Origin: Balanoglossus misakiensis
Lineage: Eukaryota > Animalia > Hemichordata
Assembly (NCBI GenBank): GCA_040954595.2
Contig: CM082577.2
Coordinates: forward strand, 15,383,903 to 15,447,902
Length of the DNA: 64,000 nt
Direction of reading: 5' to 3'
This document shows positions 1-40,023 of the stretch, piece after piece. The notes under the pieces are model-generated. The model saw nothing but the letters and a program-made list of their open reading frames with translations, ran no database searches and was not told where the DNA came from. Within the stretch, counting starts at the first letter, position 1; each line of letters begins with the position of its first letter. The position numbers and the translations under genes were made by a program.

Positions 1-2964
1 TTCATTCATGCGAGTGAGTGTAATTGCAAATTTGCCTATTCTAGATCTGTAATGGAAATGGAGAAAGTACCTTATATTTTCTGTAAAATAGACATTTAAT
101 TGGCAAGCCGTCCTGCATCAATTATGAATTGTGTACATGCACTAAAGCGCCCTCACTGCTGGGTGTGTTGTATGGTCTTTAACCCTGTTTCAAATTAGAG
201 TACTTTCTGCAATTTCAAGACAGATCTTACGTGCCATTGGAGAGCTCCATTGACTGGTCATTCATACTGTTTTCATTCATTCATTGCGGCATCAATATAT
301 TTTATCTATTCTAGCCAAAGAGCTTGGCACCTGTTGAAATGAACTCATCTGCTGTGGGCCAGTTTATTGGTGGCAGTTGAGCTGAGAAGAGCACCTTCCT
401 TCCCGGCACGCCACCAAGTAAAGTTCCACGCCGCCCACCACAGATGCCAGCATTCATTCATGCGAGTGAGTGTAATTGCAAATTTGCCTATTCTAGATCT
501 GTAATGGAAATGGAGAAAGTACCTTATATTTTCTGTAAAATAGACATTTAATTGGCAAGCCGTCCTGCATCAATTATGAATTGTGTACATGCACTAAAGC
601 GCCCTCACTGCTGGGTGTGTTGTATGGTCTTTAACCCTGTTTCAAATTAGAGTACTTTCTGCAATTTCAAGACAGATCTTACGTGCCATTGGAGAGCTCC
701 ATTGACTGGTCATTCATACTGTTTTCATTCATTCATTGCGGCATCAATATATTTTATCTATTCTAGCCAAAGAGCTTGGCACCTGTTGAAATGAACTCAT
801 CTGCTGTGGGCCAGTTTATTGGTGGCAGTTGAGCTGAGCAGAGCACCTTCCTTCCCGGCACGCCACCAAGTAAAGTTCCACGCCGCCCACCACAGATGCC
901 AGCATTCATTCATGCGAGTGAGTGTAATTGCAAATTTGCCTATTCTAGATCTGTAATGGAAATGGAGAAAGTACCTTATATTTTCTGTAAAATAGACATT
1001 TAATTGGCAAGCCGTCCTGCATCAATTATGAATTGTGTACATGCACTAAAGCGCCCTCACTGCTGGGTGTGTTGTATGGTCTTTAACCCTGTTTCAAATT
1101 AGAGTACTTTCTGCAATTTCAAGACAGATCTTACGTGCCATTGGAGAGCTCCATTGACTGGTCATTCATACTGTTTTCATTCATTCATTGCGGCATCAAT
1201 ATATTTTATCTATTCTAGCCAAAGAGCTTGGCACCTGTTGAAATGAACTCATCTGCTGTGGGCCAGTTTATTGGTGGCAGTTGAGCTGAGAAGAGCACCT
1301 TCCTTCCCGGCACGCCACCAAGTAAAGTTCCACGCCGCCCACCACAGATGCCAGCATTCATTCATGCGAGTGAGTGTAATTGCAAATTTGCCTATTCTAG
1401 ATCTGTAATGGAAATGGAGAAAGTACCTTATATTTTCTGTAAAATAGACATTTAATTGGCAAGCCGTCCTGCATCAATTATGAATTGTGTACATGCACTA
1501 AAGCGCCCTCACTGCTGGGTGTGTTGTATGGTCTTTAACCCTGTTTCAAATTAGAGTACTTTCTGCAATTTCAAGACAGATCTTACGTGCCATTGGAGAG
1601 CTCCATTGACTGGTCATTCATACTGTTTTCATTCATTCATTGCGGCATCAATATATTTTATCTATTCTAGCCAAAGAGCTTGGCACCTGTTGAAATGAAC
1701 TCATCTGCTGTGGGCCAGTTTATTGGTGGCAGTTGAGCTGAGCAGAGCACCTTCCTTCCCGGCACGCCACCAAGTAAAGTTCCACGCCGCCCACCACAGA
1801 TGCCAGCATTCATTCATGCGAGTGAGTGTAATTGCAAATTTGCCTATTCTAGATCTGTAATGGAAATGGAGAAAGTACCTTATATTTTCTGTAAAATAGA
1901 CATTTAATTGGCAAGCCGTCCTGCATCAATTATGAATTGTGTACATGCACTAAAGCGCCCTCACTGCTGGGTGTGTTGTATGGTCTTTAACCCTGTTTCA
2001 AATTAGAGTACTTTCTGCAATTTCAAGACAGATCTTACGTGCCATTGGAGAGCTCCATTGACTGGTCATTCATACTGTTTTCATTCATTCATTGCGGCAT
2101 CAATATATTTTATCTATTCTAGCCAAAGAGCTTGGCACCTGTTGAAATGAACTCATCTGCTGTGGGCCAGTTTATTGGTGGCAGTTGAGCTGAGAAGAGC
2201 ACCTTCCTTCCCGGCACGCCACCAAGTAAAGTTCCACGCCGCCCACCACAGATGCCAGCATTCATTCATGCGAGTGAGTGTAATTGCAAATTTGCCTATT
2301 CTAGATCTGTAATGGAAATGGAGAAAGTACCTTATATTTTCTGTAAAATAGACATTTAATTGGCAAGCCGTCCTGCATCAATTATGAATTGTGTACATGC
2401 ACTAAAGCGCCCTCACTGCTGGGTGTGTTGTATGGTCTTTAACCCTGTTTCAAATTAGAGTACTTTCTGCAATTTCAAGACAGATCTTACGTGCCATTGG
2501 AGAGCTCCATTGACTGGTCATTCATACTGTTTTCATTCATTCATTGCGGCATCAATATATTTTATCTATTCTAGCCAAAGAGCTTGGCACCTGTTGAAAT
2601 GAACTCATCTGCTGTGGGCCAGTTTATTGGTGGCAGTTGAGCTGAGCAGAGCACCTTCCTTCCCGGCACGCCACCAAGTAAAGTTCCACGCCGCCCACCA
2701 CAGATGCCAGCATTCATTCATGCGAGTGAGTGTAATTGCAAATTTGCCTATTCTAGAATCTTACGTGCCATTGGAGAGCTCCATTGACTGGTCATTCATA
2801 CTGTTTTCATTCATTCATTGCGGCATCAATATATTTTATCTATTCTAGCCAAAGAGCTTGGCACCTGTTGAAATGAACTCATCTGCTGTGGGCCAGTTTA
2901 TTGGTGGCAGTTGAGCTGAGGAGAGCACCTTCCTTCCCGGCACGCCACCAAGTAAAGTTCCACG
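1..2964 (+). repeat. Satellite array 1: 452-bp monomers (one 274-bp monomer near the end) with a 904-bp dimeric higher-order repeat
   Basis: Near-exact 452-bp periodicity. Private variant attatGaatt. Successive monomers alternate ctgagAagag / ctgagCagag. The array ends at agtaaagttccacg|tgcattcc (2964/2965). Confidence 0.97.
47..223. mobile_element. 177-bp MITE-like unit with 24-bp imperfect TIRs, present in every 452-bp monomer (representative copy)
   Basis: Left end ctgtaatggaaatggagaaagtac versus reverse complement of right end ctgtcttgaaattgcagaaagtac gives 19/24 identity. Flanked by AT on both sides within palindromic agatct, so a 2-, 4- or 6-bp TSD reading is formally possible. Absent from the short monomers. 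Confidence 0.8.
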
Positions 2965-4754
2965 TGCATTCCTGGCCCTGGTTTTATTTATGTTTACAGA
3001 CAATATTGCATTTTTGTACAAGTATTTTAATCAACTATAAATTTTGAATGTGTCATTTACCTGAACCGGTCATGTTGACCAGAATGATACATTTCTGCCT
3101 TCACTCACCCTATAAATATGTGATTGAGACATAGGTCATTTGCATAAGCTAACATACCAGAAAGTAAGCATATCTGTTGTTTTCCCTGTGTCACTGCCAT
3201 CAAAGTAAAAATTAGACGTTGTGTAGAGCAAACTCCAATTTTTTGTTCTCAATAAACATGGATGAATTACATAGAATGTGTTTGTTGTTTACAGTCTTTA
3301 AATGACACATTAGATTATGCACTTTACAAAACGTTTCTGAGAAACAAGTGACTAACTAGTTTCTTTCCACTGTGGCCAACGTGGTTCACTGTTTGTGTCA
3401 GAATCTCTCTGTTTTGCAAGGATTTTGAAATCATAGTGGTGACATGCATAGTGAAAATCAGCTACTTTCAAATGTCCGTCATGTTCATGCTGTAATTGAA
3501 TTTTCAAAGCTGGGCTGGCGTGTTTTTTCTTATTTACATAAGTATCACACTTTATACATGTATCTTCATGGGGTTTTCTGAGTCCCGTATTTAGGTCCTC
3601 TCTCACAATTTTACGAAATATCGTATAACTGACAGTTGTTCTTCCCAGAAGAGATTGGTTGGTTATGAACTCTCGGTGTAACTGCGATATACTGTGGTCC
3701 GGCGCCAGGTACGGTTTAAATCGAGGATTCCTGCAGTAGTGAGATTCTACAATTCTGTGCCTGCGTACGTGTTCAGTGATATCAGTCAGCAAATTTGGAT
3801 TGAGTTTCCGACGATGCCCTTTGTGTCGGCCCCTTGCATCTGGCATCAGACCAGTAAAGTTCCATGTGCATTCCTGGCCCTGGTTTTATTTATGTTTACA
3901 GACAATATTGCATTTTTGTACAAGTATTTTAATCAACTATAAATTTTGAATGTGTCATTTACCTGAACCGGTCATGTTGACCAGAATGATACATTTCTGC
4001 CTTCACTCACCCTATAAATATGTGATTGAGACATAGGTCATTTGCATAAGCTAACATACCAGAAAGTAAGCATATCTGATGTTTTCCCTGTGTCACTGCC
4101 ATCAAAGTAAAAATTAGACGTTGTGTAGAGCAAACTCCAATTTTTTGTTCTCAATAAACATGGATGAATTACATAGAATGTGTTTGTTGTTTACAGTCTT
4201 TAAATGACACATTAGATTATGCACTTTACAAAACGTTTCTGAGAAACAAGTGACTAACTAGTTTCTTTCCACTGTGGCCAACGTGGTTCACTGTTTGTGT
4301 CAGAATCTCTCTGTTTTGCAAGGATTTTGAAATCATAGTGGTGACATGCATAGTGAAAATCAGCTACTTTCAAATGTCCGTCATGTTCATGCTGTAATTG
4401 AATTTTCAAAGCTGGGCTGGCGTGTTTTTTCTTATTTACATAAGTATCACACTTTATACATGTATCTTCATGGGGTTTTCTGAGTCCCGTATTTAGGTCC
4501 TCTCTCACAATTTTACGAAATATCGTATAACTGACAGTTGTTCTTCCCAGAAGAGATTGGTTGGTTATGAACTCTCGGTGTAACTGCGATATACTGTGGT
4601 CCGGCGCCAGGTACGGTTTAAATCGAGGATTCCTGCAGTAGTGAGATTCTACAATTCTGTGCCTGCGTACGTGTTCAGTGATATCAGTCAGCAAATTTGG
4701 ATTGAGTTTCCGACGATGCCCTTTGTGTCGGCCCCTTGCATCTGGCATCAGACC
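2951..4754. repeat. 902-bp tandem duplication (2951-3852 / 3853-4754) of the 3' part and 3' UTR of the transposase N-half gene
   Basis: Near-identical units offset by 902 bp. Junction catcagacc|agtaaagttcc has AGT microhomology to the native catcagacc|agttgaac. Confidence 0.95.
3352..3846 (-). pseudogene. 5'-truncated duplicate (164 aa) of the transposase N-half gene
   Basis: Identical to the last 164 aa of the 4254-5216 ORF. Produced by the 902-bp duplication and retains an in-frame ATG (MPDARGRH). Confidence 0.85.
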
Positions 4755-5216
4755 AGTTGAACAGTGCATCATTTTGCTTAGAACGGTTCTAGTCCGCCTC
4801 TCACTAATGCCAAATAATTTCAGGAATGCATTTTTGCAGACAGTAACCGTTTCACCGCCTTCATTCACCAGGTGATAACGAACCGATTTCTTGTGTGACT
4901 TCATCTGTATATCCATCAGTTTGTAGAGCATCAAGTTCTGTTCATTATACACGCGACCATCAAAATATTTTCTCGTGGTGCCTAAAACATGCGTACTCCC
5001 AAGCTTCCGCAGACAATTCCCTTGAACGCAGGCGCATTCCAAGGAAAGACTGTCAATATCTGGAAAAGGGCGATTTTTCCTTGGTTTTTGTCTCGGACAC
5101 GTCTTTTTAGAATTCCTACGTGGCTTGTTGGCTCGAGCTGACAGTTCGGTTCTGCGTTGCTGCCACACAGGAAGGGGTTCCCACGCATAAGCAACTCCCC
5201 GGCAGGCCATGGTCAC
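4254..5216 (-). CDS. Sola1-like transposase, N-terminal Cys/His-rich DNA-binding half (320 aa)
   Basis: Motif series CxC...C, VCKNAFLKLFGIS, DARGRH, HVRRHRIVESHYCR...YL, SYTIFRKIV...N...KPHEDTCIKC, H..H. I recognise this as the region that normally precedes the catalytic core in Sola1-type (DUF7869-containing) transposases. AATAAA on the - strand at 3885-3890. Confidence 0.8.
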   Translation of the reverse strand: MTMACRGVAYAWEPLPVWQQRRTELSARANKPRRNSKKTCPRQKPRKNRPFPDIDSLSLECACVQGNCLRKLGSTHVLGTTRKYFDGRVYNEQNLMLYKLMDIQMKSHKKSVRYHLVNEGGETVTVCKNAFLKLFGISERRTRTVLSKMMHCSTGLMPDARGRHKGHRRKLNPNLLTDITEHVRRHRIVESHYCRNPRFKPYLAPDHSISQLHREFITNQSLLGRTTVSYTIFRKIVREDLNTGLRKPHEDTCIKCDTYVNKKKHASPALKIQLQHEHDGHLKVADFHYACHHYDFKILAKQRDSDTNSEPRWPQWKETS

Positions 5217-5257
5217 AGCTGAAGTATTTGTTCAAGTACTGACTGACTAAACGCGGC

Positions 5258-6391
5258 ATGGAACAAACGAACGAACGACTTCACGTTCGGAAAAAAAATC
5301 GTTGCGAGCTGTTGGGTGCATGCCTCTATAGTTGTCGGCAACCGTTCTTTTTTATTGCTAAACAATGCTGTCAGAGCATGGAAGGTGTGGTGGAAAACGA
5401 ACAGAGGTTTTGTACGACCAACGATTGGATGGTGCTACATATGGACTTCCACAAGTCATTGCCGGTTCCTAAACTCAGCTCTGAAGACTTTTACTTTAAA
5501 TCGAAATTGCAAATGAAGCTCCTTGGAATTTACAACGGGACAACGGAAAAGATGCATTGTTATGTATGGACAGAGCTCGATAGCAGAAAGTCTCCCGATG
5601 AAGTTATTACCTGTCTAAATCACTTTTTTTATAACTCGGGTGTGACCAGCAGACATGCAGTTATTTACAGCGACAACTGCCGTGCCGAATTCAAGTGTGG
5701 GAAGTTAATGTTTTACTATGACTATCTGTTACGAAAGGGCGTGTTTCGACGAATTGACTATAAAACTCTTGTGGCTGGACACACGTACTCCACCTGTGAC
5801 CGAGTTTTTGCGTCCATTGAAAGGCATGCAAGTCGTTTCCAGAGTATAGAGACACCTCACGATTGGACATCTGTGATTCGAGGATCTTCTCTGAATGGGA
5901 ACATTGGAGTTACGGAGATGACTCACAGAGACTTTTTCAATTATTCTGATTTCCTGAAAAATGAGTACGTTGTGCGTTATGCAGATACAAACAATGTAAC
6001 TTTTTACTACCAAGCCATGCACTATTTTAATTTTGGAGAAGGAGAAAGGCTTGATACCGACGGCAACCTCAGAACATTTAGTCATGCAGATAAAGTTTGG
6101 GTGAGAACATCTCTAGATCCAAGCGAGACCCCGATTGTAGTCGACTTTAGAAAGAAGAAGCAGAACCGGCGTTTACAAGATTGTACGCTGAACAAACTTT
6201 ATCAGGAACGTCGACCACTGGCGAGCAAAGTTTGGCGGGATCTTCAGAGTTTAGCCAAAAATTACCTGTCTCCGGAGGCAATAGAATTTTATAGGAATCT
6301 ACCGCTTCAGGAGAGTAGTGGCACCTCTGCAGACCCGTACGCCTTTCATGATGATGACGACGACGATGATGATGATATGGGCGGTGGTTGA
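5258..6391 (+). CDS. Sola1-like transposase, catalytic DDD/E (RNase H-fold) half; 377 aa, or 337 aa from ATG 5378
   Basis: Motifs MDFHKSLPVPKL..FYFKSKL, CYVWTE...KSPDEVITCL, IYSDNC, LVAGHTYSTCDRVFASIE, and C-terminal LY..RRPL..K.RDL. Three candidate catalytic Asp residues are intact. Acidic poly-D tail. Confidence 0.85.
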   Translation: MEQTNERLHVRKKNRCELLGACLYSCRQPFFFIAKQCCQSMEGVVENEQRFCTTNDWMVLHMDFHKSLPVPKLSSEDFYFKSKLQMKLLGIYNGTTEKMHCYVWTELDSRKSPDEVITCLNHFFYNSGVTSRHAVIYSDNCRAEFKCGKLMFYYDYLLRKGVFRRIDYKTLVAGHTYSTCDRVFASIERHASRFQSIETPHDWTSVIRGSSLNGNIGVTEMTHRDFFNYSDFLKNEYVVRYADTNNVTFYYQAMHYFNFGEGERLDTDGNLRTFSHADKVWVRTSLDPSETPIVVDFRKKKQNRRLQDCTLNKLYQERRPLASKVWRDLQSLAKNYLSPEAIEFYRNLPLQESSGTSADPYAFHDDDDDDDDDMGGG

Positions 6392-6552
6392 ACAAACTGT
6401 CCTTTTCATGACGACAGTGATTTTGGATATTTGATGTGCGTGCACAGTTTATATGTAATATTTTCACACGAACGAGTTTTGACTGAATTTGATTAAAGAA
6501 TGTACTCGATAATTAACAAATGTGCTGAATCGTGGTTATTATGTTGTTAATT

Positions 6553-6592
6553 TTTGTTTGTTTGTTTGTTTGTTTGTTTGTTTGTTTGTTTG
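6553..6592 (+). repeat. (TTTG)10 microsatellite
   Basis: Read directly. Also present at 38348-38387. Confidence 0.95.
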
Positions 6593-6789
6593 TAAACAAT
6601 TTCCGTTCATTCAACTGGCTACAAAGTTGGATTTTTGTACTGGGAAGCGATAAACTCGCACATCAAAACCGGGGAGACTCGATCATTTTTCCCTGCAGGT
6701 AGCCTGAAAAGCACCCGGGCAGAGATTACGTCATATATGGTCCACTTTAATACGAAATTATGCAAATGTGACATTTCACGGAAACGGCG

Positions 6790-6798
6790 TATATAAAA
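6790..6798 (+). promoter_or_regulatory. TATA box of the wHTH-SET gene
   Basis: TATATAAAA in a GC-flanked context about 100 bp upstream of ATG 6891. Confidence 0.6.
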
Positions 6799-6890
6799 GC
6801 GACCCTGGGCTATTGTTCGGAATGCGTCATCGACGAGAGAGTGACTGATAATTCTTCTACCTCGAGTCAACCATTCTGTATATACTGAAC

Positions 6891-8230
6891 ATGGCTAGCT
6901 GGCGCAGGAAGAGACAAGGCAATGTGCGGTCTGTAATCAACGAACGGCACCGCTCAGTTCAGTGTCCCTTTCTTCAAAAGTGGATCGGTGAGCAATTGGT
7001 ATTTTCAGGTCGTTCAGAGGATGAAGTCCAGTCCAGTACTGTATTTGAGAGCTACAAATGTTGGGTTGAAAACTATTCGTCGGCGGACAATCAAGTAATG
7101 ATTATGGTTACTAAAGCTCGATTTTTCAAGGTGAGAATGATCGCATTTTTCTTTCCCCCCCCCCCTCCCTCCCTCCCTCCCTCCCCCAAGGGACTCGTTT
7201 TCTGTCTCTTTTAAACCTGTAACTTAACGAAAAGGAAGTTTTTCACATATCTCTTCGTTGACACTATAGCAATTTGGAGCGCGGATGCTTCAAGAGAAGA
7301 GCGTTACCAAATCAAAGTCGGCCGGGGTTAATATTTATAGAGGTGTTCGTCTGAAAGCTGGTTCGCGAAGAATCTCAACGGGGAAACCTGAGCACAGTGT
7401 ACTTCAGACCAGGGCAAGGGCATTTCTTGATGACGCCAGCGTGACCGTTCCGATCGAGGTAAGAATGGTGTTTTGTTTGGACTAGGACAATAGAACGTTG
7501 CAATGAGTGTGTCAATGGGTGTCCAAGTGCAAACGTGGTCTGCTTCTGTCCACAAATGCCATTAATTTTTGGCAGGATTTATAAAATTGTCAATGAAGAA
7601 TACAAAAATGAAAAACAACAGTTAATAGCAAACTGGTAGGATTGCAAGGGCTTGTAAAACGGTACACACTGTACCAGGAAGTTTGCAACACTAATGAAGA
7701 ATGTATATGATATATTTAGGTGAGAACTGTTCGCGATCGCCGGGACGCAGGACGGTGCGCGTTTTCGACGAGGGATATTCAAGCCTGGGACGTCGTCTGC
7801 GAATACCGGGGCACGGTTATTAGCGTTGAAGAAGCTAGTCGGCGTGATGAGCTTTACAGGGCAGAGGGGAAACGACCACGCATGTTCCATCTCTACATTG
7901 GAAAGAGACACGTTGTGTGAGTGTATCACTTAGTCGAATATATGGTCATATATTGCAAAGCATCTGTCGAAATAGAAAACGTAATATTGTCTATATTTTC
8001 CTCATTAACGCAGCATTGACGGATACGATGTCCCAGCCGGTGAAGAAAATTTAGCAGGCCTAATAAATCACAGTCAGCAGAACGCCAACTTGGTACCGGT
8101 TCGGATCGGAGAGCGCCTGGTTTTCTTTGCAACCAGGAATCTTTGTCAGGGAGTAGAGCTTTTGTATGATTACGGTGACGGGGGTGAAGAGGATTTCTTC
8201 AGTGGTTCTCAAACTTTTCCTGAAAATTAA
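6891..8230 (+). CDS. Spliced gene, 280 aa: winged-helix-like N-terminal domain plus SETD8/PR-Set7-like lysine methyltransferase. Exons 6891-7130, 7270-7458, 7720-7916, 8014-8230
   Basis: Three GT-AG introns (aag|gtgaga..tatag, gag|gtaaga..tttag, gt|gtgagt..cgcag; phases 0, 0, 2) give an 843-nt open frame. SET motifs: GRCAFSTRDI..WDVVCEYRG, IDG, GLINHS, FATRNL..GVELLYDYGD. N-terminal region FLQKWIGEQL..VQSSTVFESYKCW..FFKQF..GVNIYRGVRLK resembles a D5-primase C-terminal or RFX-type winged helix. Confidence 0.88.
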
Positions 8231-9138
8231 GGCATTAACACATCAACGCTTCGGGGTGTCGTAACGGCGGCGCGGCGGGGGGGGGGGGGGGGGGACGTGA
8301 AAATGTTTGTATCAGGAACAAAATTCCCGTGCAAATCACCTTGATCCGGGTGGGTGGACTATTCGCGACAAATGTTGAAATCATACAAAGCATTTTACTT
8401 AATTAACCCATTTTTTTCATTTATTTGTTTACAGTTTACAACGTCATAGAGAAGTTGAACTAGAGACTGGATCAGCGTGGGTGACACCATAGTACACCAA
8501 TGTTTTCTTCAGTTTGATTCAATTGTAATTTAAAACTGAGATTGCCTAACGCTTTCCCAGATTTTTTTAACCACTGAGAAACTGTGGGTTTTTTTCTGGG
8601 TTTTGGTGCGAGGTGATCTCAGTCAGTGGTGTTAATTTAATTAATCATTTTCTTTTCCTATTTACGTCGACTGAAATGTATTTTGATAGGTGATAGTCAT
8701 ACCATAAAAAAAATCTTACGGCGCGACTGCCAAAATGTACATTTATTTGTCCGTTCCAAGTTATTTTGTGTATGTGTGATGGGTGCCGGTGACTGTGCAG
8801 GGTTGATTTCCCTAGAGCGACTGTTATATTCGTTTTCCAACGATGATGAATTTACATGTTATTTGCTTGGCATTTTGACGCAGAGACACTTCTGAAAACA
8901 CAAACCTATTAATTATGCCACGGGTGTAAATTGATCACATTAAAAGAGGCTTTAGACGTTTGCCGCGAGCTCCTGGTGGGCAGAATCTTGTCAGCCCAAA
9001 TTTGACTATAAGTACATAGCCAATGATGTGACGCTCTCCCACATCCTTCGCCGCGCCTTTTCGCTGATTTACAGCATCTTGCGTAAACACTGTCATTTGA
9101 TCTTGCTTGGCAGAAGTCAACTTGCTCTATACTACATT

Positions 9139-9504
9139 ATGGCGGCCAAGCTCAACTGCATATCAGATAATGCCAAGGAGCGTTTGAGAGGCATCCTCGC
9201 CAGAAGGAGTCGCGTTTCCGGTGACTGTGTGCTCTGGACGGGTGCAGCTTGTCGAAACGGCTATGGCTCTATTACGTTCAGAGATGAGAACACTCTAACC
9301 GCCTATGTCCATCACATTGCACTCCTAATTAACGGAGTGCAATTGGTGGGCAGGCGGTTAGAGTGTTCTCATCTTTGCAACGAAAAGCTATGCATCCGCC
9401 CAGAGCACATTGTCCAGGAAACGCGACTCCTAAACATTTCACGAAAGACGTGCTTTAAATCCCCAAAAGGGGAGTGTCACCACGATCCCAGGTGCCTAAG
9501 GTGA
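9139..9504 (+). CDS. His-Me finger endonuclease (zinc-binding loop of homing endonuclease / His-Cys box-like), 121 aa
   Basis: Motifs CVLWTG...GYG, YVHH, ECSHLCNEKLCIRPEHIVQE...N.SRKTC...C.H.PRC match the zf-His_Me_endon pattern. First ATG is at 9139 (attATGG). Confidence 0.85.
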   Translation: MAAKLNCISDNAKERLRGILARRSRVSGDCVLWTGAACRNGYGSITFRDENTLTAYVHHIALLINGVQLVGRRLECSHLCNEKLCIRPEHIVQETRLLNISRKTCFKSPKGECHHDPRCLR

Positions 9505-9789
9505 GTAATCCTCTTCTCATTTGATATGTATTGTGTGACCCTGCAGTTGAAACGCTTTCATCAATAATTTGCGGCGCGTGGGTAATCTCGGTGTTATTGA
9601 CAATGCAGCCGGCCCAAACATTTTTAAATTAACACTGTTTCTGACTGTATTAACGAAATGTCCAATTTGCAAGTAGCCTATAGACAACCCTTTTGAATGA
9701 GTTTTGTCTCGTTGAGATTTTATACATAAGGAACAATCTAGATTTATTTTAGAAGACACTGTTCTTTTAAAACAGCTAGCATAATACAG

Positions 9790-10156
9790 CTAAATTTCGG
9801 AATTTCCGGACAATTTTCGGAATTCCTTTTAAATTTGAGAAATTTTTCATCAGATATAAGTGTTACTATTTATTGGACATGTTTTTATCATTGTTTACTT
9901 TTTAAGGTCATTCTCACCCCCCCCCCCAAAAAAAGCCGCTTTAGGCTTCATGTTCAGTAAAAAATCTGGAAAGTTCAGCTGAATTTTACACTGATCACAC
10001 ATTTTTGGGAAGGTCTGGCGCAAAATAAAGGATGACAAATGTAAATCTAATGTCACATTTGTAAACCTCTAAGTATTGTACACTCATTCTATTAAGTATA
10101 TGCAAATAGTACGGATAATTTTTTCGGAATGTGGAATTCCGAAATTAGTTCGGAAC
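9790..10156. repeat. Clustered TTCGGAA motifs forming an imperfect inverted-repeat pair about 330 bp apart
   Basis: ctaaatttcggaatttcc and aattttcggaattcc (9790-9826) versus ggaattccgaaattag (10133-10148). Confidence 0.5.
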
Positions 10157-10480
10157 GTGTTAGCAGTGAAGAGATCACCACTGAGGGTTGGAAGGCCTTG
10201 CCAGAAATTAACGCGTAAAGTACGCCCTCACAGGCCATGTAAACAAGGTCAAATAAGGCCGTCTGGCAAACGAATGATTAATTCAACGCGCCATTTGAGC
10301 CGAGCTGAGTTGGTCTGAGTTGCGTATCACACAGACTTAGGCTGAATGTCAGTGGAGTAACCAGTCCGTTTTAGATTTACCAATGATGTGAATTTAATTT
10401 CTTCACCCAGAAAAACAGAACACAACTTGTCTGCAACATGATGCTGGAGGTGACACATGACAGAGAAGTGGATCCGCGTT

Positions 10481-10818
10481 GTCAACACAGATGCCAGCAT
10501 TCAAAAGGGGAGTGCCACCTGCTAAAATCAACTCATCTGCTGTTGGCCCATTTTACCTGTGGCAACTGTTCAGAGGAGACAACGTTTATTCCGTGCAAGC
10601 CAACACGCAATGTTGGGGTCTACCTGTCAACACAGATGCAAGCATTCATGTGAGTGAGTATCAGGACTGACCTTGTATTTGCTGAATAATTCATAATGCC
10701 TATTTTAGAATTCTTAGAGGCATTTGGAGTTCATTGCCTGGTCAACCAAACTACACCCCTTAACAGCTGAAACAAAATGCGTATTGTGTTCATTCATTCA
10801 TTGCATCAATATATATAG
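10481..10818 (+). repeat. Diverged copy of the short satellite monomer inside the cassette
   Basis: Collinear matches: cacctg.t.aaat.aactcatctgctgt.ggcc, cacagatgc.agcattcat, gagtgagt, gcctatt.tagaattctta, cattg.ctggtca, ttcattcattcattgcatcaatatat. Confidence 0.85.
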
Positions 10819-11121
10819 GCAACATGAGTATCAAGTAGCACTATTTGTTTACGATTGTATTCATGAAAACTTCCCACTAACAATTCCACAGTTAATATTG
10901 AACACATTTATCCAACAAGGTCAAAAGAAAAAGGGAATCTTCTGGTTCCAAAATACGCCACAAATGTGGGTCAACATACAGTGAAATATTATGGTGCTCA
11001 AATATGCAACATATCAAATCTGTCTCATCAAAGTCATGCTTTAAAAAAGAATTGAAAAGGTATTATTTATCCATTTGACTGCTGTATTTTCAGAAGGAAA
11101 ACAAACTGAATTTGGTTTTTC

Positions 11122-14100
11122 AAGTACCTTATATTTTCTGTAAAATAGACATTTAATTGGCAAGCCGTCCTGCATCAATTATTAATTGTGTACATGCACT
11201 AAAGCGCCCTCACTGCTGGGTGTGTTGTATGGTCTTTAACCCTGTTTCAAATTAGAGTACTTTCTGCAATTTCAAGACAGATCTTACGTGCCATTGGAGA
11301 GCTCCATTGACTGGTCATTCATACTGTTTTCATTCATTCATTGCGGCATCAATATATTTTATCTATTCTAGCCAAAGAGCTTGGCACCTGTTGAAATGAA
11401 CTCATCTGCTGTGGGCCAGTTTATTGGTGGCAGTTGAGCTGAGGAGAGCACCTTCCTTCCCGGCACGCCACCAAGTAAAGTTCCACGCCGCCCACCACAG
11501 ATGCCAGCATTCATTCATGCGAGTGAGTGTAATTGCAAATTTGCCTATTCTAGATCTGTAATGGAAATGGAGAAAGTACCTTATATTTTCTGTAAAATAG
11601 ACATTTAATTGGCAAGCCGTCCTGCATCAATTATTAATTGTGTACATGCACTAAAGCGCCCTCACTGCTGGGTGTGTTGTATGGTCTTTAACCCTGTTTC
11701 AAATTAGAGTACTTTCTGCAATTTCAAGACAGATCTTACGTGCCATTGGAGAGCTCCATTGACTGGTCATTCATACTGTTTTCATTCATTCATTGCGGCA
11801 TCAATATATTTTATCTATTCTAGCCAAAGAGCTTGGCACCTGTTGAAATGAACTCATCTGCTGTGGGCCAGTTTATTGGTGGCAGTTGAGCTGAGGAGAG
11901 CACCTTCCTTCCCGGCACGCCACCAAGTAAAGTTCCACGCCGCCCACCACAGATGCCAGCATTCATTCATGCGAGTGAGTGTAATTGCAAATTTGCCTAT
12001 TCTAGATCTGTAATGGAAATGGAGAAAGTACCTTATATTTTCTGTAAAATAGACATTTAATTGGCAAGCCGTCCTGCATCAATTATTAATTGTGTACATG
12101 CACTAAAGCGCCCTCACTGCTGGGTGTGTTGTATGGTCTTTAACCCTGTTTCAAATTAGAGTACTTTCTGCAATTTCAAGACAGATCTTACGTGCCATTG
12201 GAGAGCTCCATTGACTGGTCATTCATACTGTTTTCATTCATTCATTGCGGCATCAATATATTTTATCTATTCTAGCCAAAGAGCTTGGCACCTGTTGAAA
12301 TGAACTCATCTGCTGTGGGCCAGTTTATTGGTGGCAGTTGAGCTGAGGAGAGCACCTTCCTTCCCGGCACGCCACCAAGTAAAGTTCCACGCCGCCCACC
12401 ACAGATGCCAGCATTCATTCATGCGAGTGAGTGTAATTGCAAATTTGCCTATTCTAGATCTGTAATGGAAATGGAGAAAGTACCTTATATTTTCTGTAAA
12501 ATAGACATTTAATTGGCAAGCCGTCCTGCATCAATTATTAATTGTGTACATGCACTAAAGCGCCCTCACTGCTGGGTGTGTTGTATGGTCTTTAACCCTG
12601 TTTCAAATTAGAGTACTTTCTGCAATTTCAAGACAGATCTTACGTGCCATTGGAGAGCTCCATTGACTGGTCATTCATACTGTTTTCATTCATTCATTGC
12701 GGCATCAATATATTTTATCTATTCTAGCCAAAGAGCTTGGCACCTGTTGAAATGAACTCATCTGCTGTGGGCCAGTTTATTGGTGGCAGTTGAGCTGAGG
12801 AGAGCACCTTCTTTCCCGGCACGCCACCAAGTAAAGTTCCACGCCGCCCACCACAGATGCCAGCATTCATTCATGCGAGTGAGTGTAATTGCAAATTTGC
12901 CTATTCTAGATCTGTAATGGAAATGGAGAAAGTACCTTATATTTTCTGTAAAATAGACATTTAATTGGCAAGCCGTCCTGCATCAATTATTAATTGTGTA
13001 CATGCACTAAAGCGCCCTCACTGCTGGGTGTGTTGTATGGTCTTTAACCCTGTTTCAAATTAGAGTACTTTCTGCAATTTCAAGACAGATCTTACGTGCC
13101 ATTGGAGAGCTCCATTGACTGGTCATTCATACTGTTTTCATTCATTCATTGCGGCATCAATATATTTTATCTATTCTAGCCAAAGAGCTTGGCACCTGTT
13201 GAAATGAACTCATCTGCTGTGGGCCAGTTTATTGGTGGCAGTTGAGCTGAGGAGAGCACCTTCCTTCCCGGCACGCCACCAAGTAAAGTTCCACGCCGCC
13301 CACCACAGATGCCAGCATTCATTCATGCGAGTGAGTGTAATTGCAAATTTGCCTATTCTAGATCTGTAATGGAAATGGAGAAAGTACCTTATATTTTCTG
13401 TAAAATAGACATTTAATTGGCAAGCCGTCCTGCATCAATTATTAATTGTGTACATGCACTAAAGCGCCCTCACTGCTGGGTGTGTTGTATGGTCTTTAAC
13501 CCTGTTTCAAATTAGAGTACTTTCTGCAATTTCAAGACAGATCTTACGTGCCATTGGAGAGCTCCATTGACTGGTCATTCATACTGTTTTCATTCATTCA
13601 TTGCGGCATCAATATATTTTATCTATTCTAGCCAAAGAGCTTGGCACCTGTTGAAATGAACTCATCTGCTGTGGGCCAGTTTATTGGTGGCAGTTGAGCT
13701 GAGGAGAGCACCTTCCTTCCCGGCACGCCACCAAGTAAAGTTCCACGCCGCCCACCACAGATGCCAGCATTCATTCATGCGAGTGAGTGTAATTGCAAAT
13801 TTGCCTATTCTAGAATTCTTACGTGCCATTGGAGAGCTCCATTGACTGGTCATTCATACTGTTTTCATTCATTCATTGCGGCATCAATATATTTTATCTA
13901 TTCTAGCCAAAGAGCTTGGCACCTGTTGAAATGAACTCATCTGCTGTGGGCCAGTTTATTGGTGGCAGTTGAGCTGAGGAGAGCACCTTCCTTCCCGGCA
14001 CGCCACCAAGTAAAGTTCCACGCCGCCCACCACAGATGCCAGCATTCATTCATGCGAGTGAGTGTAATTGCAAATTTGCCTATTCTAGATCTGTAATGGA

Positions 14101-17100
14101 AATGGAGAAAGTACCTTATATTTTCTGTAAAATAGACATTTAATTGGCAAGCCGTCCTGCATCAATTATTAATTGTGTACATGCACTAAAGCGCCCTCAC
14201 TGCTGGGTGTGTTGTATGGTCTTTAACCCTGTTTCAAATTAGAGTACTTTCTGCAATTTCAAGACAGATCTTACGTGCCATTGGAGAGCTCCATTGACTG
14301 GTCATTCATACTGTTTTCATTCATTCATTGCGGCATCAATATATTTTATCTATTCTAGCCAAAGAGCTTGGCACCTGTTGAAATGAACTCATCTGCTGTG
14401 GGCCAGTTTATTGGTGGCAGTTGAGCTGAGGAGAGCACCTTCTTTCCCGGCACGCCACCAAGTAAAGTTCCACGCCGCCCACCACAGATGCCAGCATTCA
14501 TTCATGCGAGTGAGTGTAATTGCAAATTTGCCTATTCTAGAATCTTACGTGCCATTGGAGAGCTCCATTGACTGGTCATTCATACTGTTTTCATTCATTC
14601 ATTGCGGCATCAATATATTTTATCTATTCTAGCCAAAGAGCTTGGCACCTGTTGAAATGAACTCATCTGCTGTGGGCCAGTTTATTGGTGGCAGTTGAGC
14701 TGAGGAGAGCACCTTCTTTCCCGGCACGCCACCAAGTAAAGTTCCACGCCGCCCACCACAGATGCCAGCATTCATTCATGCGAGTGAGTGTAATTGCAAA
14801 TTTGCCTATTTACGTGCCATTGGAGAGCTCCATTGACTGGTCATTCATACTGTTTTCATTCATTCATTGCGGCATCAATATATTTTATCTATTCTAGCCA
14901 AAGAGCTTGGCACCTGTTGAAATGAACTCATCTGCTGTGGGCCAGTTTATTGGTGGCAGTTGAGCTGAGGAGAGCACCTTCCTTCCCGGCACGCCACCAA
15001 GTAAAGTTCCACGCCGCCCACCACAGATGCCAGCATTCATTCATGCGAGTGAGTGTAATTGCAAATTTGCCTATTCTAGATCTGTAATGGAAATGGAGAA
15101 AGTACCTTATATTTTCTGTAAAATAGACATTTAATTGGCAAGCCGTCCTGCATCAATTATTAATTGTGTACATGCACTAAAGCGCCCTCACTGCTGGGTG
15201 TGTTGTATGGTCTTTAACCCTGTTTCAAATTAGAGTACTTTCTGCAATTTCAAGACAGATCTTACGTGCCATTGGAGAGCTCCATTGACTGGTCATTCAT
15301 ACTGTTTTCATTCATTCATTGCGGCATCAATATATTTTATCTATTCTAGCCAAAGAGCTTGGCACCTGTTGAAATGAACTCATCTGCTGTGGGCCAGTTT
15401 ATTGGTGGCAGTTGAGCTGAGGAGAGCACCTTCTTTCCCGGCACGCCACCAAGTAAAGTTCCACGCCGCCCACCACAGATGCCAGCATTCATTCATGCGA
15501 GTGAGTGTAATTGCAAATTTGCCTATTCTAGAATCTTACGTGCCATTGGAGAGCTCCATTGACTGGTCATTCATACTGTTTTCATTTATTCATTGCGGCA
15601 TCAATATATTTTATCTATTCTAGCCAAAGAGCTTGGCACCTGTTGAAATGAACTCATCTGCTGTGGGCCAGTTTATTGGTGGCAGTTGAGCTGAGGAGAG
15701 CACCTTCTTTCCCGGCACGCCACCAAGTAAAGTTCCACGCCGCCCACCACAGATGCCAGCATTCATTCATGCGAGTGAGTGTAATTGCAAATTTGCCTAT
15801 TCTAGAATCTTACGTGCCATTGGAGAGCTCCATTGACTGGTCATTCATACTGTTTTCATTCATTCATTGCAGCATCAATATATTTTATCTATTCTAGCCA
15901 AAGAGCTTGGCACCTGTTGAAATGAACTCATCTGCTGTGGGCCAGTTTATTGGTGGCAGTTGAGCTGAGGAGAGCACCTTCCTTCCCGGCACGCCACCAA
16001 GTAAAGTTCCACGCCGCCCACCACAGATGCCAGCATTCATTCATGCGAGTGAGTGTAATTGCAAATTTGCCTATTCTAGAATCTTACGTGCCATTGGAGA
16101 GCTCCATTGACTGGTCATTCATACTGTTTTCATTCATTCATTGCGGCATCAATATATTTTATCTATTCTAGCCAAAGAGCTTGGCACCTGTTGAAATGAA
16201 CTCATCTGCTGTGGGCCAGTTTATTGGTGGCAGTTGAGCTGAGGAGAGCACCTTCCTTCCCGGCACGCCACCAAGTAAAGTTCCACGCCGCCCACCACAG
16301 ATGCCAGCATTCATTCATGCGAGTGAGTGTAATTGCAAATTTGCCTATTCTAGAATCTTACGTGCCATTGGAGAGCTCCATTGACTGGTCATTCATACTG
16401 TTTTCATTCATTCATTGCGGCATCAATATATTTTATCTATTCTAGCCGAAGAGCTTGGCACCTGTTGAAATGAACTCATCTGCTGTGGGCCAGTTTATTG
16501 GTGGCAGTTGAGCTGAGGAGAGCACCTTCCTTCCCGGCACGCCACCAAGTAAAGTTCCACGCCGCCCACCACAGATGCCAGCATTCATTCATGCGAGTGA
16601 GTGTAATTGCAAATTTGCCTATTCTAGATCTGTAATGGAAATGGAGAAAGTACCTTATATTTTCTGTAAAATAGACATTTAATTGGCAAGCCGTCCTGCA
16701 TCAATTATTAATTGTGTACATGCACTAAAGCGCCCTCACTGCTGGGTGTGTTGTATGGTCTTTAACCCTGTTTCAAATTAGAGTACTTTCTGCAATTTCA
16801 AGACAGATCTTACGTGCCATTGGAGAGCTCCATTGACTGGTCATTCATACTGTTTTCATTCATTCATTGCGGCATCAATATATTTTATCTATTCTAGCCA
16901 AAGAGCTTGGCACCTGTTGAAATGAACTCATCTGCTGTGGGCCAGTTTATTGGTGGCAGTTGAGCTGAGGAGAGCACCTTCCTTCCCGGCACGCCACCAA
17001 GTAAAGTTCCACGCCGCCCACCACAGATGCCAGCATTCATTCATGCGAGTGAGTGTAATTGCAAATTTGCCTATTCTAGATTCTTACGTGCCATTGGAGA

Positions 17101-34759: not shown

Positions 34760-36549
34760 TGCATTCCTGGCCCTGGTTTTATTTATGTTTACAGACAATA
34801 TTGCATTTTTGTACAAGTATTTTAATCAACTATAAATTTTGAATGTGTCATTTACCTGAACCGGTCATGTTGACCAGAATGATACATTTCTGCCTTCACT
34901 CACCCTATAAATATGTGATTGAGACATAGGTCATTTGCATAAGCTAACATACCAGAAAGTAAGCATATCTGTTGTTTTCCCTGTGTCACTGCCATCAAAG
35001 TAAAAATTAGACGTTGTGTAGAGCAAACTCCAATTTTTTGTTCTCAATAAACATGGATGAATTACATAGAATGTGTTTGTTGTTTACAGTCTTTAAATGA
35101 CACATTAGATTATGCACTTTACAAAACGTTTCTGAGAAACAAGTGACTAACTAGTTTCTTTCCACTGTGGCCAACGTGGTTCACTGTTTGTGTCAGAATC
35201 TCTCTGTTTTGCAAGGATTTTGAAATCATAGTGGTGACATGCATAGTGAAAATCAGCTACTTTCAAATGTCCGTCATGTTCATGCTGTAATTGAATTTTC
35301 AAAGCTGGGCTGGCGTGTTTTTTCTTATTTACATAAGTATCACACTTTATACATGTATCTTCATGGGGTTTTTTGAGTCCCGTATTTAGGTCCTCTCTCA
35401 CAATTTTACGAAATATCGTATAACTGACAGTTGTTCTTCCCAGAAGAGATTGGTTGGTTATGAACTCTCGGTGTAACTGCGATATACTGTGGGCCGGCGC
35501 CAGGTACGGTTTAAATCGAGGATTCCTGCAGTAGTGAGATTCTACAATTCTGTGCCTGCGTACGTGTTCAGTGATATCAGTCAGCAAATTTGGATTGAGT
35601 TTCCGACGATGCCCTTTGTGTCGGCCCCTTGCATCTGGCATCAGACCAGTAAAGTTCCATGTGCATTCCTGGCCCTGGTTTTATTTATGTTTACAGACAA
35701 TATTGCATTTTTGTACAAGTATTTTAATCAACTATAAATTTTGAATGTGTCATTTACCTGAACCGGTCATGTTGACCAGAATGATACATTTCTGCCTTCA
35801 CTCACCCTATAAATATGTGATTGAGACATAGGTCATTTGCATAAGCTAACATACCAGAAAGTAAGCATATCTGATGTTTTCCCTGTGTCACTGCCATCAA
35901 AGTAAAAATTAGACGTTGTGTAGAGCAAACTCCAATTTTTTGTTCTCAATAAACATGGATGAATTACATAGAATGTGTTTGTTGTTTACAGTCTTTAAAT
36001 GACACATTAGATTATGCACTTTACAAAACGTTTCTGAGAAACAAGTGACTAACTAGTTTCTTTCCACTGTGGCCAACGTGGTTCACTGTTTGTGTCAGAA
36101 TCTCTCTGTTTTGCAAGGATTTTGAAATCATAGTGGTGACATGCATAGTGAAAATCAGCTACTTTCAAATGTCCGTCATGTTCATGCTGTAATTGAATTT
36201 TCAAAGCTGGGCTGGCGTGTTTTTTCTTATTTACATAAGTATCACACTTTATACATGTATCTTCATGGGGTTTTCTGAGTCCCGTATTTAGGTCCTCTCT
36301 CACAATTTTACGAAATATCGTATAACTGACAGTTGTTCTTCCCAGAAGAGATTGGTTGGTTATGAACTCTCGGTGTAACTGCGATATACTGTGGTCCGGT
36401 GCCAGGTACGGTTTAAATCGAGGATTCCTGCAGTAGTGAGATTCTACAATTCTGTGCCTGCGTACGTGTTCAGTGATATCAGTCAGCAAATTTGGATTGA
36501 GTTTCCGACGATGCCCTTTGTGTCGGCCCCTTGCATCTGGCATCAGACC
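34746..36549. repeat. 902-bp tandem duplication, copy 2
   Basis: Same as 2951-4754, offset 31,795. Confidence 0.95.
35147..35641 (-). pseudogene. 5'-truncated duplicate of the transposase N-half gene, copy 2
   Basis: 164 aa with two substitutions (APAH, LKKP) relative to copy 1. Confidence 0.85.
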
Positions 36550-37011
36550 AGTTGAACAGTGCATCATTTTGCTTAGAACGGTTCTAGTCCGCCTCTCACT
36601 AATGCCAAATAATTTCAGGAATGCATTTTTGCAGACAGTAACCGTTTCACCGCCTTCATTCACCAGGTGATAACGAACCGATTTCTTGTGTGACTTCATC
36701 TGCATATCCATCAGTTTGTAGAGCATCAAGTTCTGTTCATTATACACGCGACCATCAAAATATTTTCTCGTGGTGCCTAAAACATGCGTACTCCCAAGCT
36801 TCCGCATACAATTCCCTTGAACGCAGGCGCATTCCAAGGAAAGACTGTCAATATCTGGAAAAGGGCGATTTTTCCTTGGTTTTTGTCTCGGACACGTCTT
36901 TTTAGAATTCCTACGTGGCTTGTTGGCTCGAGCTGACAGTTCGGTTCTGCGTTGCTGCCACACAGGAATGGGTTCCCACGCATAAGCAACTCCCCGGCAG
37001 GCCATGGTCAC
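36049..37011 (-). CDS. Sola1-like transposase N-terminal half, copy 2 (320 aa)
   Basis: Intact. Three conservative changes relative to copy 1 (L>I, L>M, I>M). Confidence 0.8.
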   Translation of the reverse strand: MTMACRGVAYAWEPIPVWQQRRTELSARANKPRRNSKKTCPRQKPRKNRPFPDIDSLSLECACVQGNCMRKLGSTHVLGTTRKYFDGRVYNEQNLMLYKLMDMQMKSHKKSVRYHLVNEGGETVTVCKNAFLKLFGISERRTRTVLSKMMHCSTGLMPDARGRHKGHRRKLNPNLLTDITEHVRRHRIVESHYCRNPRFKPYLAPDHSISQLHREFITNQSLLGRTTVSYTIFRKIVREDLNTGLRKPHEDTCIKCDTYVNKKKHASPALKIQLQHEHDGHLKVADFHYACHHYDFKILAKQRDSDTNSEPRWPQWKETS

Positions 37012-37052
37012 AGCTGAAGTATTTGTTCAAGTACTGACTGACTAAACGCGGC

Positions 37053-38186
37053 ATGGAACAAACGAACGAACGACTTCACGTTCGGAAAAAAAATCGTTGC
37101 GAGCTGTTGGGTGCATGCCTCTATAGTTGTCGGCAACCGTTCTTTTTTATTGCTAAACAATGCTGTCAGAGCATGGAAGGTGTGGTGGAAAACGAACAGA
37201 GGTTTTGTACGACCAACGATTGGATGGTGCTACATATGGACTTCCACAAGTCATTGCCGGTTCCTAAACTCAGCTCTGAAGACTTTTACTTTAAATCGAA
37301 ATTGCAAATGAAGCTCCTTGGAATTTACAACGGGACAACGGAAAAGATGCATTGTTATGTATGGACAGAGCTCGATAGCAGAAAGTCTCCCGATGAAGTT
37401 ATTACCTGTCTAAATCACTTTTTTTATAACTCGGGTGTGACCAGCAGACATGCAGTTATTTACAGCGACAACTGCCGTGCCGAATTCAAGTGTGGGAAGT
37501 TAATGTTTTACTATGACTATCTGTTACGAAAGGGCGTGTTTCGACGAATTGACTATAAAACTCTTGTGGCTGGACACACGTACTCCACCTGTGACCGAGT
37601 TTTTGCGTCCATTGAAAGGCATGCAAGTCGTTTCCAGAGTATAGAGACACCTCACGATTGGACATCTGTGATTCGAGGATCTTCTCTGAATGGGAACATT
37701 GGAGTTACGGAGATGACTCACAGAGACTTTTTCAATTATTCTGATTTCCTGAAAAATGAGTACGTTGTGCGTTATGCAGATACAAACAATGTAACTTTTT
37801 ACTACCAAGCCATGCACTATTTTAATTTTGGAGAAGGAGAAAGGCTTGATACCGACGGCAACCTCAGAACATTTAGTCATGCAGATAAAGTTTGGGTGAG
37901 AACATCTCTAGATCCAAGCGAGACCCCGATTGTAGTCGACTTTAGAAAGAAGAAGCAGAACCGGCGTTTACAAGATTGTACGCTGAACAAACTTTATCAG
38001 GAACGTCGACCACTGGCGAGCAAAGTTTGGCGGGATCTTCAGAGTTTAGCCAAAAATTACCTGTCTCCGGAGGCAATAGAATTTTATAGGAATCTACCGC
38101 TTCAGGAGAGTAGTGGCACCTCTGCAGACCCGTACGCCTTTCATGATGATGACGACGACGATGATGATGATATGGGCGGTGGTTGA
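37053..38186 (+). CDS. Sola1-like transposase catalytic half, copy 2
   Basis: Protein identical to copy 1. Confidence 0.85.
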   Translation: MEQTNERLHVRKKNRCELLGACLYSCRQPFFFIAKQCCQSMEGVVENEQRFCTTNDWMVLHMDFHKSLPVPKLSSEDFYFKSKLQMKLLGIYNGTTEKMHCYVWTELDSRKSPDEVITCLNHFFYNSGVTSRHAVIYSDNCRAEFKCGKLMFYYDYLLRKGVFRRIDYKTLVAGHTYSTCDRVFASIERHASRFQSIETPHDWTSVIRGSSLNGNIGVTEMTHRDFFNYSDFLKNEYVVRYADTNNVTFYYQAMHYFNFGEGERLDTDGNLRTFSHADKVWVRTSLDPSETPIVVDFRKKKQNRRLQDCTLNKLYQERRPLASKVWRDLQSLAKNYLSPEAIEFYRNLPLQESSGTSADPYAFHDDDDDDDDDMGGG

Positions 38187-38584
38187 ATAAACTGTCCTTT
38201 TCATGACGACAGTGATTTTGGATATTTGATGTGCGTGCACAGTTTATATGTAATATTTTCACACGAACGAGTTTTGACTGAATTTGATTAAAGAATGTAC
38301 TCGATAATTAACAAATGTGCTGAATCGTGGTTATTATGTTGTTAATTTTTGTTTGTTTGTTTGTTTGTTTGTTTGTTTGTTTGTTTGTAAACAATTTCCG
38401 TTCATTCAACTGGCTACAAAGTTGGATTTTTGTACTGGGAAGCGATAAACTCGCACATCAAAACCGGGGAGACTCGATCATTTTTCCCTGCAGGTAGCCT
38501 GAAAAGCACCCGGGCAGAGATTACGTCATATATGGTCCACTTTAATACGAAATTATGCAAATGTGACATTTCACGGAAACGGCG

Positions 38585-38593
38585 TATATAAAA
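38585..38593 (+). promoter_or_regulatory. TATA box, copy 2
   Basis: TATATAAAA upstream of ATG 38686. Confidence 0.6.
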
Positions 38594-38685
38594 GCGACCC
38601 TGGGCTATTGTTCGGAATGCGTCATCGACGAGAGAGTGACTGATAATTCTTCTACCTCGAGTCAACCATTCTGTATATACTGAAC

Positions 38686-40023
38686 ATGGCTAGCTGGCGC
38701 AGGAAGAGACAAGGCAATGTGCGGTCTGTAATCAACGAACGGCACCGCTCAGTTCAGTGTCCCTTTCTTCAAAAGTGGATCGGTGAGCAATTGGTATTTT
38801 CAGGTCGTTCAGAGGATGAAGTCCAGTCCAGTACTGTATTTGAGAGCTACAAATGTTGGGTTGAAAACTATTCGTCGGCGGACAATCAAGTAATGATTAT
38901 GGTTACTAAAGCTCGATTTTTCAAGGTGAGAATGATCGCATTTTTCTTTCCCCCCCCCCCCCTCCCTCCCTCCCTCCCCCAAGGGACTCGTTTTCTGTCT
39001 CTTTTAAACCTGTAACTTAACGAAAAGGAAGTTTTTCACATATCTCTTCGTTGACACTATAGCAATTTGGAGCGCGGATGCTTCAAGAGAAGAGCGTTAC
39101 CAAATCAAAGTCGGCCGGGGTTAATATTTATAGAGGTGTTCGTCTGAAAGCTGGTTCGCGAAGAATCTCAACGGGGAAACCTGAGCACAGTGTACTTCAG
39201 ACCAGGGCAAGGGCATTTCTTGATGACGCCAGCGTGACCGTTCCGATCGAGGTAAGAATGGTGTTTTGTTTGGACTAGGACAATAGAACGTTGCAATGAG
39301 TGTGTCAATGGGTGTCCAAGTGCAAACGTGGTCTGCTTCTGTCCACAAATGCCATTAATTTTTGGCAGGATTTATAAAATTGTCAATGAAGAATACAAAA
39401 ATGAAAAACAACAGTTAATAGCAAACTGGTAGGATTGCAAGGGCTTGTAAAACGGTACACACTGTACCAGGAAGTTTGCAACACTAATGAAGAATGTATA
39501 TGATATATTTAGGTGAGAACTGTTCGCGATCGCCGGGACGCAGGACGGTGCGCGTTTTCGACGAGGGATATTCAAGCCTGGGACGTCGTCTGCGAATACC
39601 GGGGCACGGTTATTAGCGTTGAAGAAGCTAGTCGGCGTGATGAGCTTTACAGGGCAGAGGGGAAACGACCACGCATGTTCCATCTCTACATTGGAAAGAG
39701 ACACGTTGTGTGAGTGTATCACTTAGTCGAATATATGGTCATATATTGCAAAGCATCTGTCGAAATAGAAAACGTAATATTGTCTATATTTTCCTCATTA
39801 ACGCAGCATTGACGGATACGATGTCCCAGCCGGTGAAGAAAATTTAGCAGGCCTAATAAATCACAGTCAGCAGAACGCCAACTTGGTACCGGTTCGGATC
39901 GGAGAGCGCCTGGTTTTCTTTGCAACCAGGAATCTTTGTCAGGGAGTAGAGCTTTTGTATGATTACGGTGACGGGGGTGAAGAGGATTTCTTCAGTGGTT
40001 CTCAAACTTTTCCTGAAAATTAA
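38686..40023 (+). CDS. wHTH-SETD8-like methyltransferase, copy 2. Exons 38686-38925, 39063-39251, 39513-39709, 39807-40023
   Basis: Same splice sites and frame as copy 1. The only length difference (2 bp) falls in the C-rich tract of intron 1, as expected if the intron call is right. Confidence 0.88.

Follow-up and report, generated by a model that had tools for sequence, protein, structure and literature searches.

Several classes of DNA transposon close the flanking DNA of their donor site into hairpins during excision, and the footprints left by such hairpins are, as such, well known. Flank hairpins are described for hAT, MULE, Transib and RAG systems (PMC5499845, also our source for pathway classes). 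For the hAT element Ac/Ds, footprints centre on the complement of the element-adjacent base (PMC5873905), a rule that we take in the form given in PMC5873905 and PMC3499496. The present study concerns a 64,000-nucleotide stretch of the hemichordate Balanoglossus misakiensis (GCA_040954595.2, contig CM082577.2, positions 15,383,903 to 15,447,902 of the forward strand; hereafter the window), which is occupied by a satellite whose long units carry a 177-bp miniature inverted-repeat transposable element (MITE). With a probability of about 0.6, a cut-and-paste MITE has left the short monomers of this satellite as empty donor sites, with junctions that represent repair scars of flank-hairpin breaks. 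A literature search for MITE excision footprints in satellites, which covered titles and the beginnings of abstracts and was not aimed at split transposases, found no report of this case.

The window contains filled units of 452 bp, empty units of 265-275 bp and two copies of an 8.1-kb gene block. The backbone monomer is 271 bp long (273 bp with AT), runs from CTTAC to TTCTAG (for example 13818..14088, forward strand) and is present in 127 copies. The 177-bp insert runs from CTGT to ACAG with AT at each side (14091..14267, 15082-15258 and 16630-16806 among its 68 copies). The 128 junctions in the window comprise 68 filled sites (AT[177 bp]AT), 38 AAT, 11 with a flanking deletion (TATT|TAC), 6 AATT and 5 ATT. 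Forward-strand examples are found at 13810..13822 for AATT, 14537..14548 for AAT (again at 15528, 15802, 16076 and 16350), 14805..14816 for the deletion and 17076..17087 for ATT. These four positions had been given correctly in a first-pass annotation, which had also seen no clean ctagATcttac site; window-wide, a clean AT joint indeed occurs in 0 of the 128 junctions, as does ATAT.

Length variation among the units is confined to the insert site, with all four variants falling inside one spot of ~14 nt (p about 7e-6 under uniform placement on 273 nt). The backbone bodies (258 nt between anchors) have no indel in 127 of 127 copies and show 6 substitution types, and the inserts have no indel in 68 of 68 copies and show 1 substitution type, giving only 7 types for both together. 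Because bodies and inserts lack any indel, a break process specific to the insert site is needed to account for the pattern.

The array is a higher-order repeat (HOR), with successive AATT junctions spaced by 6526, 7243, 5887 and 7243 nt, and by 18287 nt across the gene block. Junction counts are thus not counts of independent events, since scars are copied along the array. AATT and ATT occur at most once per HOR period and in fixed contexts, the former between two filled units in 6 of 6 cases and the latter after a filled unit in 5 of 5, and all 11 deletion junctions lie behind an identical backbone single-nucleotide polymorphism (SNP). Given these fixed contexts and the constant preceding SNP, AATT, ATT and the deletion each represent one event in this window. 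The SNP haplotypes in the window are too few for rooting the junction alleles. As read from its letters, the AATT junction might either present both element-adjacent bases as their complement or preserve the ancestral state. Two local features of the array were also seen. Positions 1-2757 hold six consecutive filled units with a private SNP in their MITE, forming a locally homogenised sub-array, and at 49117-49930 one HOR copy reads AAT-deletion-AAT where others read ATT-AAT, which is likely due to unequal exchange.

The first-pass annotation had proposed a survey of junctions in reads. When contigs from four public sequencing runs (X1-X4) were examined, the window alleles were recovered and one extra allele appeared. 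AAT is present in all four runs, and AATT, ATT and the deletion are present in X2 only. The additional allele, AA|TTAC, has a depth of 4673 in X2, near those of ATT (6286) and the deletion (5714). None of the four runs lists a clean AT joint, a result based on contigs, which lose rare variants. In runs X3 and X4, 52 of 96 junctions are filled and 30 of 96 are AAT, near the window's 68/128 and 38/128. These two runs carry the array sequence of the window unchanged, at low depth and under another organism label, and carry-over or a mixed sample is likely. Run X2 also contains forms with a duplicated GATC (ATCGAT-type empty sites, filled sites with an extra GATC and insert-insert joins). These first suggested a 4-bp GATC target site duplication (TSD), which was rejected in favour of Hi-C-type ligation products. 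Five such rows were left out of the allele set because X2 has GATC-to-GATC chimeras elsewhere and three of four loose ends checked lie at GATC sites.

We enumerated the products of 20 excision geometries (5 blunt and 15 hairpin), with repair restricted to trimming and microhomology. Only one of them yields all five alleles, namely that with the boundary CTGT..ACAG, a flank hairpin and a first nick 1 nt into the flank. This Ac/Ds-type geometry embodies the hairpin rule put forward in the first-pass annotation, and the rule holds for the fifth allele, AA|TTAC, which that annotation did not include. Blunt geometries give at most three of the five alleles and would require three untemplated matching bases (about 1 in 64). 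The fitting geometry offers 10 routes to AAT, 10 to ATT, 6 to AATT, 1 without microhomology to clean AT, and none to ATAT, so the absence of the last two from the array agrees with it. Its boundary is the same as that seen independently in dispersed MITE copies. A nick offset by 1 nt is also a feature of Hermes. Deletions from AATT yield the same set of alleles.

The insert qualifies as a genuine MITE targeting AT, being short, non-coding, bounded by terminal inverted repeats (TIRs) that match at 19 of 24 positions, and represented by dispersed copies with defined ends. Within the array, the ends are ambiguous because the site is a palindrome. Diverged relatives elsewhere, about 86-95% alike, occur in public-run contigs in which (AT)n immediately precedes CTGT and immediately follows ACAG, and this fixes the ends as CTGT..ACAG. 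The dispersed left flank comes from at least two contigs and the right flank from one. These flanks lie in separate contigs, and therefore the dispersed copies, which the first-pass annotation had hoped to see with their own TSDs, do exist but do not fix the TSD length: it is 2 bp or none in the array, and 4 bp is possible in (AT)n. The backbone ends were considered as worn MITE TIRs and rejected, because the similarity is not significant (p 0.07-0.6).

The gene block (2965..11121) is embedded in the array, has a second copy at 34760-42912 that is 99.8% identical, and is multi-copy in the genome. It carries a transposase of DUF7869 type in two halves. The N-terminal half is a stand-alone gene on the reverse strand (4254..5210, ATG at 5210) that aligns to the N-terminal part of a fused 585-amino acid DUF7869 protein (P0004, E 4e-12). 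The catalytic half is encoded divergently on the forward strand (5378..6391), and its residues D23, D99 and D141 are invariant in 5 of 5 aligned sequences. DUF7869 proteins are presumably Sola1 transposases. Six open reading frames (ORFs) of the block were scanned, and these gave DUF7869, a His-Me finger nuclease and a SET domain but no hAT family. The nuclease (9139..9504, forward strand) is I-PpoI-like and has residues matching S97, H98, H110, E114 and N119 of I-PpoI; within its gene, 227 nt (9204-9430) form a weak self-palindrome at 71%. The SET-domain gene is predicted from a splice model to have four exons and encode 280 amino acids (6891..8233, forward strand; Pfam SET, E 1.6e-7). Diverged copies of this intron-containing gene are found elsewhere, some with a deletion of ~500 nt. 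A tandem duplication of 902 bp (2950-4756) contains the 3' part of the N-half gene and has double depth in both runs, so it is general among block copies. An Rfam search over 2300-12100 gave no match at E 1.

A full HMMER search found 2594 relatives of the N-half, where a word-index search had given none. The best 6 of these 2594 are stand-alone proteins of 306-347 amino acids that end at the same point as the window protein. A tree was built from 57 rows, comprising the window protein and those 56 of 61 proteins tried that cover the core, with a midpoint root only and with split or fused labels assigned by tail length, such that some rows may be fragments. In this tree the window N-half and its six best relatives form one side of a branch with support 90/84, and these seven rows are nested in a starred group of 11 rows (99/95) that contains no row labelled fused. 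Three of four relatives of the catalytic half are also stand-alone (306-313 amino acids), and one relative is named from Saccoglossus. With stand-alone relatives for both halves, and those closest to the N-half ending at the same point, the split is not local damage but appears common to the clade of closest N-half relatives. Both runs show the multi-copy block with its head-to-head layout uninterrupted, and the orientation is known from this block alone. The best N-half and C-half relatives (P0005 and P0001) each lie on one 2400-nt contig, possibly the same one.

Further searches around the split transposase gave negative results. Self-BLAST of the block revealed no inverted repeats able to re-fuse the half genes, a metagenome scan gave no relatives of the catalytic half, and a PDB sequence search with the C-half profile returned nothing significant. 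No fused C-half relative of at least 591 amino acids was found, which is weak evidence. The AlphaFold model of the C-half was too poor (pLDDT 46.8) and was not used. We found no paper under DUF7869 and no published description of the cutting chemistry of this family. Among the proteins on view, the split DUF7869 (Sola-like) transposase is the likeliest candidate for a putative excision enzyme.

The footprints in the array resemble those of hAT elements: they centre on the base complementary to the one next to the element, and short palindromic additions, small deletions and joins at microhomology occur (PMC5873905, PMC3499496). In contrast to the 8-bp target duplication of hAT elements, the array flanks share only AT outside CTGT..ACAG, no hAT transposase is among the scanned block ORFs, and the scars are fixed and amplified as satellite monomers. 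The proposed excision works like that of hAT, but the element is not a hAT, with a target repeat of at most 2 bp and no hAT protein among the ORFs scanned. Tc1/mariner elements duplicate TA and leave footprints that keep 2-3 element bases. The array differs on both counts: its target is AT, and no allele keeps element bases when the GATC-duplicated joints are excluded.

Sola1 and Sola2 elements have a 4-bp AWWT TSD (PMC3845634, PMC3627910). The array may resemble Sola in the three invariant aspartates of the catalytic half and in its AT-rich target; the dispersed MITEs in (AT)n would fit ATAT. At the array site, by contrast, the flanking bases (left AGAT, right ATCT) form no 4-bp duplication. 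A further difference is that the transposase consists of two divergently oriented genes accompanied by SET and His-Me genes. No relevant publication on Sola hairpin chemistry was found.

KolobokP elements likewise combine a DDD/E transposase with an I-PpoI-like His-Me nuclease, form tandem multimers, include a repeat of ~450 bp and have a non-autonomous unit excised from inside the multimer (PMC9587614); the array's nuclease is of this I-PpoI-like kind and retains its catalytic residues. KolobokP differs in having a Kolobok transposase and RR..YY termini, versus DUF7869 and MITE ends CT..AG here, and an LTDR with its own TIRs, whereas the ends of the 452-bp unit of the array are not inverted. 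Its excision also loses 1-5 bp on one side only (PMC9587614), whereas AATT here alters both sides. Satellites built of tandem transposons share transposon-derived arrays, informative junctions and expansion by unequal exchange (bioRxiv 10.1101/158386). The array junctions differ in that they look like empty donor sites in a host monomer rather than dimer junctions, and the accessible portion of that preprint does not mention excision.

In the model we favour, the MITE would have inserted once at AT, with a 2-bp duplication or none, and the unit would then have been amplified. A transposase supplied in trans would have nicked 1 nt into each flank, and the flanks would have closed as hairpins whose opening and end-joining could yield AATT, AAT, ATT, AA|TTAC and the deletion. 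Unequal exchange might then have spread each scar until the scars became letters of the HOR. Excision is favoured on the ground that simple insertion at the AT target of the family explains the filled site, whereas an AATT origin needs symmetric capture; the placement of all six AATT units between filled units was also counted in its favour. The number of excisions lies between one and five or more, with several as our best guess. A wider picture is tentative, and we would sooner expect it to fail than to hold: a conserved lineage of head-to-head split Sola-like transposases, together with a SET gene and a homing-type nuclease, would cut at a 2-bp AT target by way of flank hairpins offset by 1 nt, live in its own satellite, keep excising its MITE and thereby write the HOR alphabet.

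Several observations weigh against excision. AAT, ATT, AA|TTAC and the deletion are each a single deletion of AATT. Starting from AAT instead, ATT is one substitution, AA|TTAC a 2-nt deletion and the deletion allele a 9-nt deletion. Because the alleles are single events from AATT or AAT, sequence alone neither counts excisions nor fixes polarity, and the claim of at least four independent excisions in the first-pass annotation goes further than the sequences allow. The MITE TIRs are worn, the array encodes a His-Me nuclease with intact catalytic residues, and AATT fits the AWWT duplication of Sola. Contigs drop rare variants, and hence a rare clean AT joint may have been lost. The block joins the right 157 bp of the MITE through a 6-nt microhomology and other contigs continue into different sequence, which leaves the block as no more than a possible parent of the MITE.

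The last of these contrary observations concerns a diverged backbone paralog (~71% like the backbone; 10480..10815, forward strand), which reads AATT at 10709-10712 inside an imperfect inverted repeat and seems older than the MITE family. The first-pass annotation had noticed this copy, which is real (10703-10717) and recurs at 42494. Because the paralog looks older than the MITE family, its AATT is hard to explain as a scar of the same insertion, and to judge from this divergence the site probably predates the MITE insertion. Among the run-contig rows listed, no variant is seen at 10700-10720. In some block copies a 396-nt deletion (joint 10383-10780) takes out the paralog AATT site. The backbone also has at least three diverged tandem families elsewhere (contig joints at 10502-10814; X1 depths 278, 153 and 40), and one contig of a diverged family opens like a filled or clean right junction, which hints that insertion predates the family split. 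The scenario that the first-pass annotation had itself offered as a refutation, with AATT ancestral and the other junctions derived from it, is possible: the paralog reads AATT, the other alleles are single deletions of AATT, and the array encodes a His-Me nuclease potentially able to cleave there.

The alternative that survives best makes direct use of this nuclease. AATT would be ancestral and be cut by the I-PpoI-like enzyme to leave a 4-nt overhang, the other alleles, including the deletion of 10 bp, would be cut-resistant end-joining scars, and the MITE would have been captured once at such a cut and would likewise block cutting. Every allele is indeed one deletion from AATT, the rarity of AATT (6/128) is as expected of a cleavable state, and the catalytic residues are kept. 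I-PpoI cuts semi-palindromes to give 4-base 3' overhangs, and I-PpoI-like nucleases have been proposed as drivers of KolobokP multimer growth (PMC9587614). The inverted repeat around the paralog AATT (p about 0.006, post hoc) also suits such an enzyme, but no inverted repeat is found at the site in the array itself (p 0.93) and the cleavage target of this nuclease is purely putative. Furthermore, passing from AATT to AT[MITE]AT requires symmetric trimming and the capture of an element whose flank bases match exactly. We regard this explanation as improbable.

Slightly less credible is an account in which the backbone is composed of both ends of a larger, tandemly arranged Sola-like element, with AATT as the ancestral target duplication between its copies. 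The same hairpin chemistry with a 1-nt offset would apply, with filled-in ends and an excised MITE producing AT[MITE]AT and one-ended cuts producing AAT and ATT. Consistent with this account, the native continuation of the first 205 nt of the backbone is the gene block, as is also the case in a diverged variant (joint 10602 to 3860), and the block terminates in a backbone-like right end followed by AATT, in agreement with AWWT. Tandem DNA transposons are known to retain the target duplication at their junction (bioRxiv 10.1101/158386). Yet, as noted above, the backbone ends show no significant likeness to the MITE TIRs, nor in the array to each other, a rare capture is required, and the predicted clean AT backbone joints number 0 of 128. 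Because this one of the two AATT-ancestral alternatives uses the same geometry as the excision model, the inference of flank-hairpin chemistry spans both and is, on the whole, likely.

A long shot is that one excision or deletion created a single empty allele, from which point mutation and slippage made the others before they were spread by the array. Among the empty alleles, AAT is the most frequent and has the widest distribution, and from it ATT arises by a substitution, AA|TTAC and the deletion by losses of 2 nt and 9 nt, and AATT by a 1-nt insertion; however, no other indel is present in 258 + 177 nt over 127 and 68 copies, and the clustering probability given above also speaks against this account. 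The notion that assembly or library artefacts explain the variety of junctions, prompted by the resemblance of GATC-duplicated junctions in X2 to Hi-C ligation products, has a negligible chance of being right, since the four window alleles recur in fixed HOR order and as public-run contigs, and X3 and X4 show filled and AAT proportions close to those of the window.

The scars seem to be the sole length polymorphism of the satellite and so define its HOR, which would provide a direct route from transposase activity to satellite diversity. Filled and empty sites stand side by side in many copies, and flank-hairpin chemistry appears here to act on an AT target of 2 bp, next to a DUF7869 transposase encoded, throughout a whole clade, by two genes. 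With the donor, the predicted products and a candidate enzyme all in one locus, the chemistry can be tested together. If the nuclease explanation is true, the array would document, in nature, a homing-type drive together with the alleles that resist it. If the split-transposase reading is true, the array would offer a natural view of how an uncharacterised family of transposases carries out its chemistry.

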